Part shown: piece by piece, positions 31,480 through 40,726 of the stretch
Layout of the letters: every line of letters begins with the position of its first letter
How positions within the stretch are numbered: the first letter of the stretch is position 1
Source of the DNA: Myxococcota bacterium
GTDB taxonomy: Bacteria > Myxococcota_A > UBA9160 > UBA4427
Assembly: GCA_965250285.1 (NCBI GenBank)
Contig: OZ252299.1
Location: 4,064,001 to 4,128,000 of the forward strand
Direction of reading: 5' to 3'
Length of the DNA: 64,000 bases
Program-made: the position numbers and the translations under genes
Notes under the pieces: model-generated
Seen by the model: only the letters and a program-made list of their open reading frames with translations
Told to the model about the DNA's origin: nothing
Databases searched by the model: none

Positions 31480-32838
31480 TCAGAGACCAGCCGGGATCAG
31501 CACCTCGTTGATCCCCTGCACGGTGGCGCCGGTCAGCTCGTTGTCGAAGTCGACGACGCGTGCACCGTTGATGCGCACCCCGAAGAACCACAGGAACCGA
31601 GTGGCCACAGACTGACCGAGCGCGGTGTCGGTCTTTCGCTCGAAGATCATCTCGATGATCGACTTCTCGGACGGGATCACGTGGTAGAGCAGGATCGTCG
31701 AGAGCGTCTCCGGATCGTCGAGCAGCGCGTTGATGGTGTCTTCGCCCAGCGCGGCGAAGGCCTCGTTCGTCGGCGCCAGGATCGTCACCGGTCCGAGCGC
31801 GACGAGATCCTCGGCGATGCCGGCCGCCTGGATGGCGGCAACGAGGGTCGTGTAGCCCTCGGCCTCGAGCTCGTCGAGGATCGACGCGTCGGGACCGGTG
31901 GGCGGGAGAAGCACCTGCTCGATGACGTGAATCGTCGCATTCGGCGAGCGAGCGTCGAAGCCCGATACCGTCGAATCGTTCACCTTCAAGCCCTCGCGAG
32001 TGAACTCGACGTCGACGCGGCCGCCCTGGAGCGTGGCCGCGCCTCCCTGGAAGAAGAGCGAAACGGCGCCCTGCTTGCCATCGAGCAGGTGGTAGGTGAG
32101 GATGCTCTGAAGCAGCGGGATGTCATTCTTCACCGCATCGAGCGTGTCCTGGCCGAGCAACGCGAAGGCGTCGTCGGTCGGAGCGAAGAGCGTGAACGGA
32201 CCGCCGTTGACCGCCGTGTCGGCGAGGCCGGCCGTGACCACGAGGTCGATGAGGGTGCCGAAACGACCGTCGAGGGCGAGCACGTCGACGAGGCTCTCGA
32301 CCTCGAAGTCTTCCGCATCGGGGATCAGCACCTCGCCGATCACGTGCGCACGGCCGTTCGTGGCGCGCACGTCCTCGATCAGAATCTCGATGCCGTTCAC
32401 GCGAATCGCGCGGCTGTCGCGAATCGCAACCACCGGCTGTCCCTGCAGCGTCGAGAAGACCGTGTCGTGCTTGAGCGTCCAGCTCGGCACGTCGCCGGGC
32501 AGCACGTGGTAGAGCAGCACCTTCTCGAGCTCGTCCGGATCGGCGACCAACGAATCGAGGACACCGTCGGGCAGCGCATCGAACGCGTCGTCGGTGGGCG
32601 TGAAGACGGTCAGCGCATCGGCGTCGGCCACCACACCCTTCAGGCCCGTCGCTTCGAGCGCGAAGAGCAGCGTGCCGAAGCGGCCGTCTGCCTCCAGGGT
32701 CTCGATCAGGTCGAGGGTCGGCGCGGGACCGCGACGGAAGCGCGCATCGGCCGAGGGTGCAGAGACCAGGACGGCAAAGGCGACCAGGCCGAGCACCGCT
32801 GCGCGGCCGAGTCGAAGGGAACGGGGATGGACGTGCAT
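31480..32838 (-). CDS. Secreted fasciclin (FAS1 x3) domain protein
   Basis: ATG 32838 with AGGAG RBS. Signal peptide; three repeats of T(V/L/I)(F/L)(T/A)PT(D/N)(D/E)AF...L..(V/I)L.YH...(H/Q)(V/G)I..VL.P. Confidence 0.93.
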   Translation of the reverse strand: MHVHPRSLRLGRAAVLGLVAFAVLVSAPSADARFRRGPAPTLDLIETLEADGRFGTLLFALEATGLKGVVADADALTVFTPTDDAFDALPDGVLDSLVADPDELEKVLLYHVLPGDVPSWTLKHDTVFSTLQGQPVVAIRDSRAIRVNGIEILIEDVRATNGRAHVIGEVLIPDAEDFEVESLVDVLALDGRFGTLIDLVVTAGLADTAVNGGPFTLFAPTDDAFALLGQDTLDAVKNDIPLLQSILTYHLLDGKQGAVSLFFQGGAATLQGGRVDVEFTREGLKVNDSTVSGFDARSPNATIHVIEQVLLPPTGPDASILDELEAEGYTTLVAAIQAAGIAEDLVALGPVTILAPTNEAFAALGEDTINALLDDPETLSTILLYHVIPSEKSIIEMIFERKTDTALGQSVATRFLWFFGVRINGARVVDFDNELTGATVQGINEVLIPAGL

Positions 32839-33156: not shown

Positions 33157-33678
33157 ATGCCGAACACCCGGAAGCAACACTTCGTCGAGGAGCTGAAGCG
33201 CCACTACGGCGAGATCATTGCGGGCGCGCGACAGGCCGAGCTCGGCACCGCCGACGCCGCCGACACCCTGCAGAAGGAGTCGCGCAGCCGGGACGAGGCC
33301 AAGCAGGCCGCCGAGTTCGGGCGCGTCTCGGTGACGCACAGAAAACGACGAGAGCGCGCCGTGCGCGACGTCGATGCTCTGATCGACTTCGTCGGACCGG
33401 GTCTGCGCGACCTGCCCCGCAACGCCAAGGTTCAGCTCGGCGCGTTCGTCGACGTGAGCATCGAGGACGGGGAAGGCGAGAGCGAAGAACGTACGTTCTT
33501 CGTGTTGCCGGTCGGCGCGGGGACCGAGCTCAGCGGCCCGGGCGGTGATGGCTTCGTCTCGGTCGTCACGCCGCAGTCGCCGGTCGGCAAGGGGCTCATG
33601 GGCTCGATGGTGGGCGACAGCTTCGAGATCTCGACGGGCGACGTCGACCGAGAGTGGACCGTCCTCGACATCGGCTGA
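33157..33678 (+). CDS. GreA/GreB-family C-terminal domain protein (atypical Gre-like factor)
   Basis: N-terminal coiled coil; C-terminal VQLGAFV, VVTPQSPVGKGLMG..VGDSFEI. Confidence 0.82.
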   Translation: MPNTRKQHFVEELKRHYGEIIAGARQAELGTADAADTLQKESRSRDEAKQAAEFGRVSVTHRKRRERAVRDVDALIDFVGPGLRDLPRNAKVQLGAFVDVSIEDGEGESEERTFFVLPVGAGTELSGPGGDGFVSVVTPQSPVGKGLMGSMVGDSFEISTGDVDREWTVLDIG

Positions 33679-33791: not shown

Positions 33792-33807
33792 TGCACGAGC
33801 GGCGCAC
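33792..33807 (+). promoter_or_regulatory. Direct repeat TGCAC-N6-CGCAC, candidate OmpR-family box
   Basis: 11-bp period, upstream of the DUF2809 gene; matches the box at 34477. Confidence 0.4.
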
Positions 33808-33871: not shown

Positions 33872-34399
33872 ATGTCCGCTTCGATCCACTCTTCACCTCT
33901 TCGAACGCCCCCTCGTCCTTCGAAACGGGTGCTCGAGCTGTGCGCGCGCATCGCGCGCTTCGTGGCTCGCCAGGCGCTCGTCTTCGCTTCGCTGGTTGCG
34001 ACGCTCGCGCTCGGTATCGGCTCGCAGGTCTATGACGGCCCGGGCGCCCGCTTTGTGGCCCGCGACGTCTCGGCCGCGATCTATGCCCTCGCCTGGTGCT
34101 TCGGCCTCGCCTTGATGCTCTGGCGATGGCCGCCTCGGGCCGTGGGCGTCGGGGCGCTCGCGGTTTGCTTCGCGGTCGAGCTGAGCCAGCTCTGGCATCC
34201 GCACTGGCTCGAGGTCGGGCGCGCGACCTGGCCCGGTCGGCTCGTGCTCGGCAGCACGTTCATGTGGAGCGATCTCGCGTGGTCGGTCGTCGGGGTCGGC
34301 GTCGGCCTCATCTGGCTGCGTTGCCTGCCCTTCGCTCGCGGGTCGCAGACCGCGATCACCGACGACTTCGTCCGACCACTCGGTGTGCGCCCGCTCTGA
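33872..34399 (+). CDS. DUF2809 family membrane protein
   Basis: GGAGG RBS. FAVELSQLWHPHWLE..RAT..GRLVLGSTF.WSDL. Confidence 0.82.
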   Translation: MSASIHSSPLRTPPRPSKRVLELCARIARFVARQALVFASLVATLALGIGSQVYDGPGARFVARDVSAAIYALAWCFGLALMLWRWPPRAVGVGALAVCFAVELSQLWHPHWLEVGRATWPGRLVLGSTFMWSDLAWSVVGVGVGLIWLRCLPFARGSQTAITDDFVRPLGVRPL

Positions 34400-34476
34400 C
34401 GAAGGCCAGCGCCACGTCGATCCAGGACGCGTGGATCGGTGGCCCGGTCGTTGACCGGCAGATCGCACGCAGCGTT

Positions 34477-34492
34477 TGCACGGTTTCTGCAC
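34477..34492 (+). promoter_or_regulatory. Direct repeat TGCAC-N6-TGCAC (cre-tag-like geometry)
   Basis: TGCACGGTTTCTGCAC about 70 bp upstream of the exosortase ATG. Same spacing as the CreB tag TTCAC-N6-TTCAC. Confidence 0.55.
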
Positions 34493-34559
34493 GAACCCGC
34501 CCGCGTCTCGCCCAGGCTCATTCATCCCCGCCGCACGGGCGCATCGCACCCTGCCCCTC

Positions 34560-36098
34560 ATGCCGCGATCCCCCCGTATCCGCCTGAGCCGCTTCGCCGG
34601 CGAACCCATGGGTGCCCGCCCGCGCAGCTTCGCGTTCTGGCTCGCCGGCCCGGGCCTCGCCGCCCTGGTCATCGAGCCGGCCGTCTGGCTCGGCCGAAGC
34701 TGGCTCGACCCCTCGTATCAGAGCGACGGCTGGATCGTGGCCGCGATCACCGCGGCTTTGCTGCTCGCGTCCTTCGCGAGCGGCTCGGCGCCGCCCGATC
34801 GCCGAGACCGCCGGCGCGCCCTCGTCGCCCTCGCAGCCACCGCCGGCGTTCGACTCATCGGGCGCCTGCTCGCGGTCCACACCATCGGCGCACTGGCGCT
34901 CGTCGTGGACGTCTGGGCCGTGGCCGTACTCGTCGGCGTGCGACGTCGGCCCTTCGCGCTGCAGCCCGTCGGCCTCGCGCTCTTCTTCGCGCTGGCGCTG
35001 CCCGTCGAACACCTCGCCCAGCGACTGCTCGGCCATCCACTCCAGCGCGCGGCAGCGACGACCTCGGAGTGGGTTCTCGCGCCCTTCTTCCCCGAGCTCA
35101 CCCGCGAAGGCGTGCTGCTGGTGCATCCCGACGCGATGCTCGCCGTCGACCTGCCGTGCAGCGGCGCGCGCGGTCTGGTCCTGCTGACGGCCCTCGCCCT
35201 CGGGCTTTGGACGTGTCGCGCGCCCGGGGTGCGGGGCACGATCGCGGGCTCGGCTGCCGTCGTCCTGGGCGCTTTCGCCGCGAACACGCTGCGCATCATC
35301 GCGCTCTTCATCGGCGGGGTCGTTCACGTCCCGGTGATCGAGGAGCCCTGGCATTCGGCGATGGGCGCGCTGGTTCTCGCGATCGGGGCCGCGCCTCTGC
35401 TCCTGATCGCGATGCGCGCGCCCGCACGGCGACCCACCCGCCCGCCCCTGTCGGCCGGGCTCGGCAGTGGCGCGCCTTCTGGCCATCACCGGTCGATGCC
35501 ATGGCCGCTGGCACTCGCCGTCAGCCTGATCGGCCTCGGCATCGCGTTCGCGCCCGAGCGGCCCCTCGACGTCTCGGGCCCCGTCGAACCTCGAAGACTG
35601 CCGACGACGCTCGGCCGCTTCGTTGGCCTCGAAGTGCCGCTTCGCGAGCGCGAGGCGATCTACTACACGCGCTTCGGCGGCTACGCGCAGAAACGCATCT
35701 ACGATGACGGCGGCGGCGACGCGATCACCGCCCTGCTCGTGCGCACGCGTTCACCGCTGCGACACCTGCATGGCCCCGAGGCCTGCCTGACCGGCGCGGG
35801 GCACGACGTGACGCGCCTCGGCGTGGTGCCCGGCGCGACGCCCGCCGTCGTCTACCGAAGCATCGACGCACAGGGCCGGCCCTGGCGAATCGAGGCGAGC
35901 TTCGTGAGCGATCGCGGCGAGGTGGCGACCAGCGTGTCCGAGGTGGTCTGGCGCTGGCTCGAATACCCCGACGCCGCGTGGAGCCTGGTCGAACGCATCA
36001 CACCCTGGTCGACGTGCGAGCGCACGCCCGGCCGTTGCCGCGAGCTCGAGACTGCGCTCTTCGCGAGCCTCGATCTCCCCGTGGAGAGACGCCCATGA
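34560..36098 (+). CDS. Exosortase/archaeosortase-family transpeptidase with EpsI-like C-terminal domain (XrtT-like)
   Basis: Multi-TM. Catalytic triad Cys (VDLPCSG), Arg (ANTLRI), His (EPWHSAMG). C-terminal HLHGPEACLTGAG resembles the EpsI H.PE.C motif. Confidence 0.87.
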   Translation: MPRSPRIRLSRFAGEPMGARPRSFAFWLAGPGLAALVIEPAVWLGRSWLDPSYQSDGWIVAAITAALLLASFASGSAPPDRRDRRRALVALAATAGVRLIGRLLAVHTIGALALVVDVWAVAVLVGVRRRPFALQPVGLALFFALALPVEHLAQRLLGHPLQRAAATTSEWVLAPFFPELTREGVLLVHPDAMLAVDLPCSGARGLVLLTALALGLWTCRAPGVRGTIAGSAAVVLGAFAANTLRIIALFIGGVVHVPVIEEPWHSAMGALVLAIGAAPLLLIAMRAPARRPTRPPLSAGLGSGAPSGHHRSMPWPLALAVSLIGLGIAFAPERPLDVSGPVEPRRLPTTLGRFVGLEVPLREREAIYYTRFGGYAQKRIYDDGGGDAITALLVRTRSPLRHLHGPEACLTGAGHDVTRLGVVPGATPAVVYRSIDAQGRPWRIEASFVSDRGEVATSVSEVVWRWLEYPDAAWSLVERITPWSTCERTPGRCRELETALFASLDLPVERRP

Positions 36099-38389
36099 AC
36101 ACACCCATCCTTCGCTGCGTCGGTGCGCGTGCACCGATCGAAACCCGCGCGCGCGAACGCTTCGTTCTACGTGCATGGGTCGCTCTCATGATCGCGACGG
36201 CATGCTCGATCGCGATCGGCGCGACCTCGGTGCAGGCAAGCCCGCACGACGGCACCCGACCCGAGCTCGTCGCAATCATCGACGGAAACGAGGTGCCGCT
36301 GCCGACCCTCGCGCTCGACATGAAGGCGAAGATCCAGGGGGATCTCGCGACGGTGATCCTGAGCCAGACGTTCGAGAACCCGAACGATGTGCCGATCCAC
36401 GCGCGATACATGTTCCCGCTGCCGCCCGACGCGGCGGTCTTTGCGATGCGCTTCATCTCGGGTGACCAGATGATCGAAGCCGAGATTCGCGAGAAGCAGG
36501 AGGCGCGCGCCGTCTTCGAAGCCGCGAAGAAACGCGGCAATCAGGCGGCCCTCACCGAGCAGCATCGCCCGAACGTGTTCACGCAGGAGGTCGCGAACCT
36601 CACGCCCGGCTCGCGCGTACGGGTCGAGCTCGAGTACGCGCACGTCGTCGACAAAGAGCACGGCGACTACCGGTTCCACTTTCCGATGGTCGTCGGTCCC
36701 CGCTTCGTTCCACTCGCGCCTTCCGGGGGGAGCGCGGGTGCCCCCACCCGAGTGCCCGGAGAACCCGAGGCACTCGAGGTGGGGGTCTGGAACCTGCCGC
36801 CGACGATGCCCGTCGCACCGCCCGATCGCGTCGACCGCGATCGCGTCTCGATTCACGTCGAGCTCGACGGCGGGCTCCCGGTGCGCGAGCTCACGAGCCC
36901 GAGTCATCCGCTGAAGGTCGAGCAGGACGGGCGGAGCAAGCGGACGATCACGCTCGGCGAGGGGCGCACGCTCGACAACCAGGACTTCGAGCTGCACTAC
37001 CACCTGGCCGATGACGACGTCGCCGCGGGGGTCACGAGCTTCGCAGACGGCGGCGACGGCTACTTCTCGTTGCTGATCGAGCCGCCCGACGAGGTCGCCG
37101 ACGGCCGGATCGCTCGGCGTGAGATGGTCTTCGTGCTCGACTGCTCGGGTAGCATGTCGGGCGTACCGATGGCGGCCTCGAAGCGCTTCATGCGCCGAAG
37201 CCTCGCGGGCCTGCGACCGGGCGACGCATTTCGCATCATCCGCTTCAGCGACTCGGCGACGGCGTGGAGCGAACAGCCGCTCCCCGCGACGCCCGAGAAC
37301 GTGCGAGACGGGCTGCGCTACGTCGACTCGCTCTTCGGCAGCGGCGGCACGCACATGGCGAGCGGCATTAGCGCCGCACTCGCGCCGGCTGTGCAAGAGG
37401 GCCGCGTGCGACTCGTCGTGTTCCTGACCGACGGCTACATCGGGAACGACATCGAGATCGTACGCCTGCTCGAAGCCGAACGCGGCGAGGCGCGCCTGTT
37501 CTCGTTCGGCATCGGAAACAGCGTCAACCGCTACCTGATCGAAGAGATGGGCCGCGTGGGGCGCGGCGCTTCGCGCATGGTGCGCCCCGACGCCGATGCC
37601 GAGCAGGCCGCCGACGAGCTGGTCGCCCGCTTGGACGCGCCCGTCCTGACCGACATCGAGATCGACTGGGGCGACGCCGATATCGCCGACGTCTTTCCGC
37701 GCGAGATCCCCGATCTCTTCGCGGGGCAGACCGTTCGAGTGATGGGCCGATACGAAGCGCACGGTCGGCACCGGGCCATGATCCACGGTCGGATCGCCGG
37801 GGCACCGGTGAAGCTGCCCATCGATCTCGATCTGCCCGCACACGAGACGGGGGTCGAGGGCCGCGCCATTCCGATCATCTGGGCGCGCTCCCAGATCGAG
37901 GACCGCATGATCGAGTTCATCTCGCCCGCATCCGATCAAGAGGACCGCGACGCGCTGCAGGCCGAGGTGACCCGCCTCGGGCTGACCCATCGCCTGCTGA
38001 CCCAGTGGACCTCGTTCGTCGCCGTGGCGCGCGAGGTCGTGAACCCCGGCGGCGAAGGGTTCGACGCCGACGTCGAGGTGCCCCAGGTCGAAGGCGTCGC
38101 CGAAGCCGCGTATCCGCCCGGCGCGGTCCCGACGTCACCCGGGGCGAGCGCCGTCGCCGCGTCGAGCCCGACGAGCGAATCGGAGACGAGCGGCTTCGAC
38201 TTCGGCCCGGCCGCCGGCAAGGGGGCGCTCGCGCCCGCAGCGCCCGTCTTCCACGGCGCGCTGCAGCTCGTTGCGCAGAACGGGTTCACGGGCGCGTCGG
38301 GTCCGGAGCCCTCCACCTGGCTCGCGCTCACGGCGATCGGGCTCGTCGGCAGCGTGTTGTGGTGGCGCCGCACTACGGCAAACTCGTAG
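36095..38389 (+). CDS. VIT + vWA domain protein with PEP-CTERM-type sorting signal
   Basis: ATGA overlap with the exosortase. VIT (QTFENP...YMFPLPPDAAV...EKQEARAVFEAAK), MIDAS DCSGS, FLTDG, tail GPEPSTWLALTAIGLVGSVLWWRR. Confidence 0.92.
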   Translation: MNTPILRCVGARAPIETRARERFVLRAWVALMIATACSIAIGATSVQASPHDGTRPELVAIIDGNEVPLPTLALDMKAKIQGDLATVILSQTFENPNDVPIHARYMFPLPPDAAVFAMRFISGDQMIEAEIREKQEARAVFEAAKKRGNQAALTEQHRPNVFTQEVANLTPGSRVRVELEYAHVVDKEHGDYRFHFPMVVGPRFVPLAPSGGSAGAPTRVPGEPEALEVGVWNLPPTMPVAPPDRVDRDRVSIHVELDGGLPVRELTSPSHPLKVEQDGRSKRTITLGEGRTLDNQDFELHYHLADDDVAAGVTSFADGGDGYFSLLIEPPDEVADGRIARREMVFVLDCSGSMSGVPMAASKRFMRRSLAGLRPGDAFRIIRFSDSATAWSEQPLPATPENVRDGLRYVDSLFGSGGTHMASGISAALAPAVQEGRVRLVVFLTDGYIGNDIEIVRLLEAERGEARLFSFGIGNSVNRYLIEEMGRVGRGASRMVRPDADAEQAADELVARLDAPVLTDIEIDWGDADIADVFPREIPDLFAGQTVRVMGRYEAHGRHRAMIHGRIAGAPVKLPIDLDLPAHETGVEGRAIPIIWARSQIEDRMIEFISPASDQEDRDALQAEVTRLGLTHRLLTQWTSFVAVAREVVNPGGEGFDADVEVPQVEGVAEAAYPPGAVPTSPGASAVAASSPTSESETSGFDFGPAAGKGALAPAAPVFHGALQLVAQNGFTGASGPEPSTWLALTAIGLVGSVLWWRRTTANS

Positions 38390-38405
38390 CGGGGGAGAGA
38401 CCGGC

Positions 38406-39122
38406 ATGGCCCGCATTCTCGTCGTCGACGATGACGCTCACATTCGCGAGGTGGTCTGCTTCGCGCTGGAGAAGGCGGGCCATGCAACGAGCGAAGCGGC
38501 GGATGGCCGGGCGGCGCTGGACGCGTTCGCCCGGTCGCCCGCCGAGCTCGTCGTCCTCGACATCCTCATGCCCGAGGTCGACGGACTCGAGGTCTGCCGT
38601 GAGCTGCGCCGCGAGAGCGATGTCCCCATTCTCTTCCTGTCGAGTCGCGACGAAGAGCTCGACCGGGTGCTCGGCCTCGAGATGGGCGCCGACGACTATG
38701 TCGTGAAGCCGTTCTCGCCGCGCGAACTCGTCGCGCGGGTGAAGGGCATCCTCAGGCGGGCGCAGCGACGCAACGCGCCCCCGACGGGCGAGGCGGGCGA
38801 CCGCGAGCATGTGATCGAGCTCGGACCGCTGCGCATGGATCTGCAGCGCTTCGAGTGCACGTGGGAGGGTGTGCCGATCACGCTGACCGTCACCGAGTTC
38901 GGTCTGCTGCAATCGCTGCTGGGGATGCCCGGCAAGGTCTACACCCGCGACGAGCTCGTCGACCGGGCCTATGGCGATGGCCACCACATCACCGACCGCA
39001 CGGTGGACAGCCATATCCGTCGCATCCGAAAGAAGTTCAAGGCCGCCGGCGGCGAGCCGGTCGAGACGGTGTACGGACTCGGCTATCGCATTCGGCTCGA
39101 GCCGGGCGACGCGACCCCGTGA
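38406..39122 (+). CDS. OmpR/PhoB-family response regulator (CreB/ChvI/PdsR-like)
   Basis: ILVVDDD, LDILMP, GADDYVVKPFSPREL, winged helix DRTVDSHIRRIRKK, ETVYGLGY. Confidence 0.95.
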   Translation: MARILVVDDDAHIREVVCFALEKAGHATSEAADGRAALDAFARSPAELVVLDILMPEVDGLEVCRELRRESDVPILFLSSRDEELDRVLGLEMGADDYVVKPFSPRELVARVKGILRRAQRRNAPPTGEAGDREHVIELGPLRMDLQRFECTWEGVPITLTVTEFGLLQSLLGMPGKVYTRDELVDRAYGDGHHITDRTVDSHIRRIRKKFKAAGGEPVETVYGLGYRIRLEPGDATP

Positions 39123-40726
39123 GACGCGCACCCGGGGCGGGCGAAGCGGCGGGCGGCGAAGCGGCCGGCCGCTGGCGCCCGCGCATCGGGATCCGCGAGC
39201 TGCTGCTCGCGGTGAATGCGTTCGCCCTGCTGGTGCCGCTCGGCGCCATCGTGCTGCTGCGCATCTTCGACGATCAGCTGATTCGCCGCACCGAGGCTCA
39301 GCTGATCGGTCAGTCGGTGTTGATCGCCGAAGCCTGGCGCGAGGCGTGGCTGCGTGAGTCGGGCCTGTCGCCCGAGAACGCCCCCGACTGGATGCCCCCC
39401 TCGGCGAAGGGCCGAACCTACTTCGCACTCGAGCCGATCTTGAGTCTCGACCAGGGTGTGCTGCCACCGACCCCGGACGAGCCGGCGCGGGTCGGTTCGG
39501 CACGGCAAGGGGCCGCCTGGCGCGCCGGTCGGGCGATCGAGCCGGTGCTCGAACGGGCCGTGCGGATGAATCTGTCGAGCGCCCGGGTGCTCGACGACCA
39601 GGGTTGCGTGGTGGCGTCGAGCGGATCCCAGCTCGCGGCCTGCTTCGGCGACCTCGCCGAGGTGCGCGGCGCCCTCGAAGGCCACTATGCGGCCGTGCTG
39701 CGTCACCGCGTCAGCGACGATCCGGCGCCGGCCTACGACAGCATCAGCCGACGCGGACGCGTGCGCGTCTATACGGCGCTCCCTGTGCTCGCTGACGGCG
39801 AGGTGATCGGCATCGTGCGCATGTCGCGCACGGCGATCGATCCGGGCAAGGCGCTCTGGTTCGATCGCTACCGGCTGCTCGCGGTCCTCGTCGGGTGCGC
39901 CGTCGGTACGGCCGCACTCTCGCTCTTTCTGTCTCGCACGATCGTCCGGCCGCTGCGGGCCATCACGCGCGTCGCGCGCGACATCGCGAGCGGCGCAGGG
40001 CGCGAGCCCGTTGCCCTCTCACGGTTGGCTCCCGACGAGCTTCGCGAGGTGAGCGATGCCCTCGATCAGATGATCGACCAGCTCTCGGACCGCGCCGAGT
40101 ACATCGCCGAGTTTGCCGCCACGGTGAGCCACGAGCTCAAGACGCCGATCACCGGCATTCGCGGCGCTTCCGAGCTGCTCGCCGAGCAGTGGGACGAGAT
40201 GAGCGACGGCGAGCGACGGCGGTTCATCGACAACATCCAGAGCGACGCCGACCGCATGGAGCGCCTCGTCACGCGGCTCCTGCATCTCGCGCGCATCCAG
40301 AGCGCGCCCGAACAGGTCGAAGACATCGACCTCGACGCGTTCTGTCGCGGGCTCGCTGAGCGCTACGGCCCGGGTCTCGCGATCGAGGTCGAGCGTCCGG
40401 GCCTGCACGTGCGCATCCAACCCGAGCACCTCGAATCAGCACTTCGCAATCTGCTCGACAACGCGTTTCGGCACGGCGCCGGTCAGCCCGTCGGGCTCCA
40501 CATCGGCGCGCGCGGCGAACGCCTGGCGGTCCACGTGACCGATCATGGGCCGGGCATCAGCGAAGGCAACCGCGACCGCGTGTTTCAGCGGTTCTTCACG
40601 ACGGAGCGCGACAACGGCGGCACCGGGCTCGGTTTGGCGATCGTGCGCGCCGTCGCCGAGATGCGGGGCGGATCGCTGACGTTCGAGACGAGCGACGCCG
40701 GCACCACGTTCGAGCTGTTGCTCTAG
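39119..40726 (+). CDS. Sensor histidine kinase (CreC/PdsS-like)
   Basis: GTGA overlap. Two TMs, HAMP, SHELKTPITGIRGASELL, NLLDNA, DHGPGI, FFTT, GTGLGL. Confidence 0.94.
   Translation: MRRAPGAGEAAGGEAAGRWRPRIGIRELLLAVNAFALLVPLGAIVLLRIFDDQLIRRTEAQLIGQSVLIAEAWREAWLRESGLSPENAPDWMPPSAKGRTYFALEPILSLDQGVLPPTPDEPARVGSARQGAAWRAGRAIEPVLERAVRMNLSSARVLDDQGCVVASSGSQLAACFGDLAEVRGALEGHYAAVLRHRVSDDPAPAYDSISRRGRVRVYTALPVLADGEVIGIVRMSRTAIDPGKALWFDRYRLLAVLVGCAVGTAALSLFLSRTIVRPLRAITRVARDIASGAGREPVALSRLAPDELREVSDALDQMIDQLSDRAEYIAEFAATVSHELKTPITGIRGASELLAEQWDEMSDGERRRFIDNIQSDADRMERLVTRLLHLARIQSAPEQVEDIDLDAFCRGLAERYGPGLAIEVERPGLHVRIQPEHLESALRNLLDNAFRHGAGQPVGLHIGARGERLAVHVTDHGPGISEGNRDRVFQRFFTTERDNGGTGLGLAIVRAVAEMRGGSLTFETSDAGTTFELLL

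Follow-up and report, generated by a model that had tools for sequence, protein, structure and literature searches.

An exosortase T cassette of a Myxococcota bacterium with a conserved promoter box predicted to bind its own response regulator

What switches on an exosortase cassette that carries its own two-component system, and what might the cassette do? The question is raised by a locus of a Myxococcota bacterium (GenBank assembly GCA_965250285.1, contig OZ252299.1, positions 4,064,001 to 4,128,000), a stretch of 64,000 nucleotides hereafter termed the window. On its plus strand, genes for an exosortase (512 amino acids; 34560-36098), a target protein with VIT and von Willebrand factor A (vWA) domains (764 amino acids; 36095-38389), an OmpR-family response regulator (238 amino acids; 38406-39122) and a sensor histidine kinase (535 amino acids; 39119-40726) follow one another, preceded by a gene for a DUF2809 membrane protein (175 amino acids; 33872-34399). 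All five reading frames are uninterrupted, and their arrangement is exactly as a first-pass annotation of this DNA had described it: the exosortase and target genes overlap by ATGA (36095-36098), the regulator and kinase genes by GTGA (39119-39122), and 16 bp separate the target gene from that of the regulator. The reading favored here, with a probability of roughly 0.6, is that this exosortase T (XrtT) cassette is switched on by its own kinase and regulator through a TGCAC-N6-TGCAC direct repeat, probably upon damage to the cell wall or envelope. The box, and its tie to XrtT-VIT, CreD and DUF4153 genes through one two-component family, are what is new here.

The predicted promoter box lies upstream of xrtT at 34474-34495 on the plus strand (half-sites at 34477-34481 and 34488-34492, an 11-bp period). 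The xrtT loci compared with it were recovered by an alignment search, 80 being kept from 241 stretches of a species-level genome collection and 80 from 167 related metagenome stretches; a single-protein locus search had returned no match. An exact TGCAC repeat with a period of 11 occurs in 61 of 105 non-redundant regions upstream of xrtT, and at periods of 10 and 12 no 5-mer repeat was found in more than six of the same regions. A matrix built from the other loci, with the window left out, matched at 12 bits or more in 82/104 non-redundant upstream regions, an in-sample count for which the controls gave 0 (reverse strand), 0 (xrtT coding DNA) and 0.4 (shuffles). The second base of the half-sites is G in 98% and 87% of the sites. 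The box mostly stands 130-250 nt before a conserved codon and always faces xrtT, whether the two-component genes lie downstream, divergent or upstream. In the window, it scores 27.9 bits and is the best site of the 6.25-Mb genome, the next reaching 23.8 bits. A scan with the sigma-70 consensus found no promoter before xrtT. ATG 34560 is preferred as the xrtT start because the upstream TTG 34476 would fall inside the box.

Presence of the box was then set against presence of the two-component pair. The box was found in 55 of the 56 xrtT loci with the pair nearby as against four of nine long loci without it, and in each of five box-positive genomes lacking the pair at the locus, the sensor is encoded elsewhere; among box-negative genomes, the sensor was present in one of five. 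TGCAC-N6-TGCAC is thus likely to be the site at which the response regulator of the operon binds, and the xrtT operon is likely to regulate itself. The first-pass annotation had proposed such self-regulation, which now has a conserved promoter box behind it; the binding is predicted. Alternatively, the repeat might be read by some other factor, such as sigma-54, in whose -24/-12 element the spacing is identical, and the pair would merely be a frequent neighbor. The sigma-54 consensus is TGGCAC-N5-TTGCA, on which TGCAC-N6-TGCA can be overlaid, and the four boxes retained away from the pair would fit, but the obligatory G at -25 is a T in 79 of 79 box sites. Moreover, weaker half-sites recur in phase at 11 bp, as in OmpR-type arrays, and the box tracks the sensor across genomes and across unrelated target genes. 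This explanation is consequently regarded as very improbable.

Five Hyphomicrobiaceae xrtT loci (L069, L077, L082, L084, and L089) have no box. They carry instead genes for a winged-helix regulator and an undecaprenyl-diphosphate synthase co-oriented upstream of xrtT, and a search of four Hyphomicrobiaceae genomes did not find the sensor; a swap of regulator is possibly involved.

An outside test of the box was provided by copies of the pair that stand apart from xrtT. Fifty loci around relatives of the kinase were assembled, 45 of them without xrtT (6/45 from genomes picked through xrtT loci), and a box of at least 18 bits was found near the pair in 23/45; the reversed matrix gave 0/45. Beside these relatives of the pair, the box precedes creD (L256 and L310), CreD-like genes (L280, L283, L289, L294, and L295), or DUF4153 genes (L257, L259, L300, L309, and L312). 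At L287 (8730-14801), a 27.0-bit box just after the kinase gene is followed by genes for an alpha-2-macroglobulin and a PBP1C-like transglycosylase, and elsewhere the box stands before a B12 radical-SAM gene (L292), at a contig edge (L293) or before the regulator gene itself (L275, L277, and L303). At five further loci (L260, L278, L304, L305, and L308), three genes for small membrane proteins, with no Pfam family over its cut-off, lie between box and pair; this three-gene run, noted at L260, L278 and L304-L308, would be another output, so far undescribed, of this circuit. Where the VIT gene is split from xrtT (L270), each of the two genes has its own box. XrtT-VIT, CreD, and DUF4153 would thus probably be alternative outputs of one circuit. 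Carriers in culture include Sinimarinibacterium flocculans DSM 104150 (L026, xrtT-VIT and a divergent pair), Ruegeria sp. TM1040 (L309, DUF4173), and Azospirillum sp. B510 (L310, creD). As a side observation, an xrtT arrangement in L034, L036, and L037 has a divergent extracytoplasmic-function sigma factor gene and a YfbK-type vWA gene upstream of xrtT, and in these cases the two-component pair is found elsewhere, beside a DUF4153 gene and a box.

The family of the two-component pair was addressed with family models and trees. The best NCBIfam matches of the regulator and kinase were the CreB model (231.5 bits, cut-off 273) and the CreC model (194.7, cut-off 356), and matches to the marine-type models were lower still (regulator to TIGR03787, 178.6 with a cut-off of 335.7; kinase to the PdsS model TIGR03785, 81.8 with a cut-off of 612.2). 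The kinase, earlier described as CreC-like, and the regulator thus resemble CreC and CreB and fall short of both cut-offs. The regulator is 37% identical to E. coli CreB, 47-49% to ChvI and 33-44% to PdsR-type regulators. In a regulator tree obtained by quick search, in which one row (X_L083) is a wrongly picked regulator, the 36 rows linked to xrtT, creD or DUF4153 are grouped in a single clade with an SH-aLRT of 97, to the exclusion of E. coli CreB and of the eight Pds-type and three ChvI rows. A kinase tree agrees (clade support 87, FastTree only). The phylogeny thus indicates that the pair is its own clade, distinct from CreBC, PdsRS/PghKR and ChvGI. Its regulator combines PF00072 and PF00486, with the acceptor at D52, and its kinase has two transmembrane segments and a HAMP-HisKA-HATPase order, with a periplasmic domain of approximately 200 residues that has no Pfam match. 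A profile of the sensor matches 475 protein clusters (E<=1e-30) as well as 48 of the 201 genomes sampled from the phylum and 4 of 201 from the alphaproteobacterial class. The box accordingly names a candidate regulator-site pair for a two-component family present in 48/201 phylum genomes and in alpha- and gammaproteobacteria, and a stimulus found for one output (XrtT-VIT, CreD, or DUF4153) would bear on all. A separate case was noted at L249 (6568-11401), where genes for a marine-type VIT-LPXTG target and a class GN sortase run divergently to those of a pair grouping with E. coli CreB/CreC; given the clade of this pair, VIT-vWA cassettes are coupled to at least three two-component clades.

The enzyme of the cassette could be assigned directly. 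Comparison with models of the exosortase subfamilies, a check suggested by the first-pass annotation, gave 421.9 bits against NF033770 (cut-off 250; profile positions 8-472 of 472), the others reaching 55 at most (XrtW 55, XrtO 47.3; XrtN without a match at E<=0.01), and by this match the protease is a member of the named NCBIfam family exosortase T. Its homologs carry the name exosortase T in public records. C200, R245, H265, H404, and C409 are invariant in 81/81 aligned homologs, picked from 101; the first three are presumably the catalytic Cys/Arg/His triad of exosortases, which had been noted as intact from the window alone. XrtT consists of a multi-pass membrane part and a C-terminal soluble domain with an invariant RHLHGPxxCL motif. 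The soluble domain has no Pfam match in the window protein; weak support for its being EpsI comes from PF11984, found in 8/81 homologs at E<=0.1 (best 1.6e-4), and from Atlas matches at 0.94 whose recognition value lies below the mark of that tool. In one genome (G140; loci L012/L013 and L080), xrtT lies in two overlapping frames, through a frameshift or sequencing error.

The VIT-vWA protein (PF08487, 113 bits; PF13768, 55.5 bits) is composed of an N-terminal hydrophobic export signal, an ITIH-like core, a variable linker and an FTGASGPEP tail followed by a transmembrane segment and two arginines, with GPEP encoded at 38300. The tail passes PF07589 marginally (21.0, cut-off 20.7), and the MIDAS (metal-ion-dependent adhesion site) residues, D349-x-S351-x-S353, T419, and D446, are invariant in 87/87 target homologs, in agreement with the earlier description of both as intact. 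Against TIGR03788, the model of marine sortase targets, the protein scores 471.7 with a cut-off of 551.65. Where 600 bp or more of downstream sequence is available, its gene stands directly after xrtT in 76/77 genome loci and 62/62 metagenome loci. Of 50 long genome xrtT loci, 39 include close kin of the two-component pair, placed downstream in 20, divergently upstream in 14, and upstream in the same orientation in 5. The linkage, then, is conserved, and because the pair stays with xrtT through three arrangements, it argues for function rather than drift. The conserved unit is four genes: xrtT, the VIT-vWA target, the regulator and the kinase. No further gene recurred beside xrtT across distant taxa in a scan of 46 of the 88 neighbor clusters. 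The cassette is patchy, xrtT being found in 4/151 genomes of the class, and the closest named homologs are from Myxococcota assemblies. Locus L090 has two VIT-PEP genes in tandem.

Six matches to exosortases and 61 PEP-CTERM hits scoring above the cut-off were counted in the genome, and this abundance, together with a tail that passes the generic PEP-CTERM cut-off, raises the alternative that other exosortases process the target or that XrtT serves many of the 61 proteins. The tails, however, differ: 53/61 have VPEP or IPEP, and GPEP occurs once, in the XrtT target. Across taxa, XrtT targets end in F-x-G-x-x-[TAVGS]-PEP, and a loose version of this signature (aromatic/Ile-Gly before PEP) fits 63/71 target tails vs 8/60 other tails of the genome. 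One-to-one pairing of enzyme and target is given as a mark of dedicated systems in the accessible text of Haft and Varghese (PMC3237569), and the adjacency of xrtT and VIT genes, with its 4-bp overlap, is near-invariant. An undedicated XrtT is hence held to be very improbable, and XrtT and the VIT-vWA protein likely form a dedicated enzyme-target pair, with cleavage of the tail predicted.

That bacterial homologs of vault proteins end in GlyGly-CTERM, LPXTG or PEP-CTERM was stated in the same source (PMC3237569), and because of these three reported endings, the swapping of anchors on VIT-vWA proteins is already published in the text accessible there. Since XrtT is also already named, the description of the cassette as a functionally undescribed system was overstated. 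No paper on XrtT, the cassette, the pair or the box was found, most subscription papers lying outside the reach of the search. The cassette is real and conserved, its core is the named exosortase T system, and the value added is a well-controlled candidate binding site.

Other anchors were met along the way. The genome has a second VIT-vWA gene (L265, 5610-8317; G000:C1:438610-441317), whose product ends in GSGFFG, a transmembrane segment and RRWRR, and which overlaps a rhombosortase gene (TIGR03902, 94.6; cut-off 84) and has no box. These two genes are, by sequence, another dedicated sorting pair with a different anchor in the same genome. A VIT-vWA protein that carries an OmpA peptidoglycan-binding domain fused at its C terminus (L251, 4256-6742) represents a fourth kind of anchor.

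What, then, would the circuit respond to? Because the box precedes creD and the macroglobulin/transglycosylase pair, and because an analogous system is known in Shewanella, envelope damage is considered the most likely trigger. The Shewanella analog, PghKR, is reported to respond to peptidoglycan damage, with the sortase operon (more than 17-fold) and creD rising upon ampicillin treatment or loss of PBP1a (accessible portion of bioRxiv 10.1101/2023.05.05.539549), and up-regulation of the same sortase operon and creD is described in S. algae with a kinase point mutation (PMC11580497, in part). The envelope-stress idea of the first-pass annotation is thus supported by analogy, through this work and through the box before creD. 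In the proposed sequence of events, the periplasmic domain of the kinase would sense an envelope signal and phosphorylate the regulator at D52. A regulator dimer, as the conservation of the 11-bp-period repeat suggests, would bind the box and drive one transcript of xrtT, VIT-vWA, regulator and kinase genes with positive feedback. The VIT-vWA protein would be exported, XrtT would cleave its F-x-G-x-x-x-PEP tail, and the protein would be held at the membrane or surface. As the least certain step, the ITIH-like core would use its Mg-binding MIDAS to capture protein ligands and so protect the damaged envelope.

Regarding this last step, a model of the target built from the 87-row alignment (pLDDT 89.8; a single-sequence prediction gave pLDDT 36) has ITIH1 (6fpy) as its best fold match over the whole core (TM-score 0.68, E 1.6e-36, 16% identity), and the target profile matches PARP4 (E 3e-72), ITIH4 (9e-54) and ITIH1 (7e-40). 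ITIH4 is described in the accessible part of PMC7793589 as trapping proteases with the help of its MIDAS once it has been cut within a variable region. The preferred guess, a tentative one given minority odds, is that the VIT-vWA core, like ITIH4, traps incoming proteases. A trap would fit with the invariant MIDAS and with the variable linker that stands before the anchor, and so would any tethered adhesin. Indeed, the same wiring may serve another purpose, with a surface, host or nutrient cue as its input and the MIDAS protein as an adhesin or matrix scaffold. vWA/MIDAS domains are common in adhesins, pilus adhesins and integrins also figure, at lower rank, among the fold matches of the target, and PEP-CTERM systems are, in the literature accessible in part, tied to exopolysaccharide and floc formation; the absence of an ampicillin phenotype in the Shewanella deletions given below would fit as well. 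The same box and pair elsewhere stand at creD, DUF4153, and macroglobulin/transglycosylase genes, however, and no exopolysaccharide genes recurred among the 46 neighbor representatives scanned of the 88 clusters, so that this alternative is given minority odds. A still broader reading, put forward as doubtful, takes the pair as an unnamed, widespread envelope-damage signaling family that would stand next to CreBC, PghKR and ChvGI, with its own box and interchangeable effectors (XrtT-anchored VIT-vWA, CreD, DUF4153, and alpha-2-macroglobulin with transglycosylase), in which VIT-vWA would act as a bacterial ITIH4-like, MIDAS-dependent protease trap, displayed when required. Were the trap to prove true, the bacterial VIT-vWA targets of sortases, exosortases and rhombosortases, long orphans, would gain a function; in the accessible text of bioRxiv 10.1101/2023.05.05.539549, both bacterial VIT-vWA proteins and Gram-negative dedicated sorting systems are said to be of unknown function.

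Several results weigh against activation of the cassette by envelope damage through the box, or against single steps of it. According to the accessible part of bioRxiv 10.1101/2023.05.05.539549, deleting the Shewanella sortase or its VIT target did not change resistance to ampicillin. The proposed stimulus is carried over from kinases of another kind: the sensor-domain profile found nothing significant in PDB, and the Pfam scan of the kinase found no CBM9, which PghK needs. In 22 of the 45 xrtT-free loci, no box reaching 18 bits lies close to the pair. Of the 23 boxes found, 11 stand before genes without a known envelope role or before the single macroglobulin case (regulator 3, unknown membrane genes 5, radical-SAM 1, contig edge 1, macroglobulin 1). 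The four genomes negative for both box and sensor are all Hyphomicrobiaceae-type kin and amount to approximately one event. In the source genome (95% complete), creD was not found, and other matches to the box precede no recognizable envelope gene. For the protease-trap step, the basis is a likeness of fold together with a single macroglobulin locus. Nor was a genome-wide regulon found in the source genome, where other hits below 20 bits are near control levels, and among 30 exact-pattern loci in five genomes, the only relevant-looking ones were the xrtT site and one murA-like site. With regard to the latter, an 18.7-bit box stands 66 nt before a gene, recognized by eye as murA-like, of the Sinimarinibacterium genome (L194); it is a single case and may be due to chance.

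Upstream of the box, the DUF2809 gene (PF10990, 72.1 bits) ends 160 bp before the exosortase gene. It had been counted as a member of the cassette, but it was found in 2/160 loci (0/80 genome loci and 2/80 metagenome loci, both close kin; many loci are short-flanked), and no box of at least 8 bits precedes it, a weak TGCAC-like repeat at 33792 scoring below 8 bits. DUF2809 is a peripheral, lineage-specific neighbor and no conserved cassette member. As described in the accessible text of PMC12419801, it is the Skillet family of the Lipocone, predicted lipid-modifying enzymes, and is placed in operons regulated by winged-helix-turn-helix proteins together with isoprenoid-lipid genes. Further upstream, a gene at 33157-33678 (plus strand) encodes a protein with the GreA/GreB C-terminal domain alone; in L012, L080, and L094, it is syntenic with xrtT. 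The divergent gene at 31480-32835 (minus strand) encodes an exported protein with three fasciclin domains.

How the XrtT-linked system stands to those already known may finally be considered. Its protease is the same as exosortase T (NF033770) at the family level, with no difference. The marine dedicated sortase system (TIGR03784/03785/03787/03788; its PdsRS being PghKR of Shewanella) shares with the XrtT cassette a homologous VIT-vWA target, a single enzyme dedicated to sorting, and OmpR-type two-component genes alongside. The XrtT cassette, in contrast, uses an exosortase and PEP (GPEP tail) instead of a class GN sortase and LPXTG, lacks pdsO, and has a kinase without CBM9 and a regulator and kinase in another clade. 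Among marine-type loci, the box at 18 bits or more was found in 0/14, and before the targets no shared repeat turned up apart from a weak CTCCA one in 5/14. The earlier proposal of the marine module with just its anchor swapped is thus contradicted by the separate clades, the missing CBM9 and the missing box. With the ITIH1/ITIH4 heavy chains and the VIT-vWA region of PARP4, the XrtT target shares a profile, the fold of the whole core and an intact MIDAS, but it is bacterial, has a PEP-CTERM anchor and is 16% identical in the fold match, a likeness seen in sequence and model.

ChvG/ChvI, described in the accessible parts of PMC9731502 and PMC9731437 as an envelope-homeostasis pair, has the highest regulator identity among the named systems, yet it falls in a separate clade, and the ChvI motifs given in PMC9731502 (TTGC-N3-GCAA and GCC-N8-GCC; accessible text) differ from the XrtT box. 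ChvG and the XrtT-type kinase coexist in two genomes (G152 and G154), and the ChvG model had no match at E<=1e-60 in the source genome. The last comparison is with CreBC/BlrAB, whose cre/blr tag, TTCAC-N6-TTCAC (PMC4689548, in part), was found before E. coli creD. It has the same 5-N6-5 direct repeat, the XrtT box being one base per half-site away (TGCAC vs TTCAC), and relatives of the XrtT-linked pair adjoin creD with the box upstream, but the pair itself is below both family cut-offs and outside the E. coli CreB/CreC clade by the quick and FastTree methods used. Judged by its sequences, the XrtT-linked system resembles CreBC or PghKR in the way it is laid out and belongs to neither.

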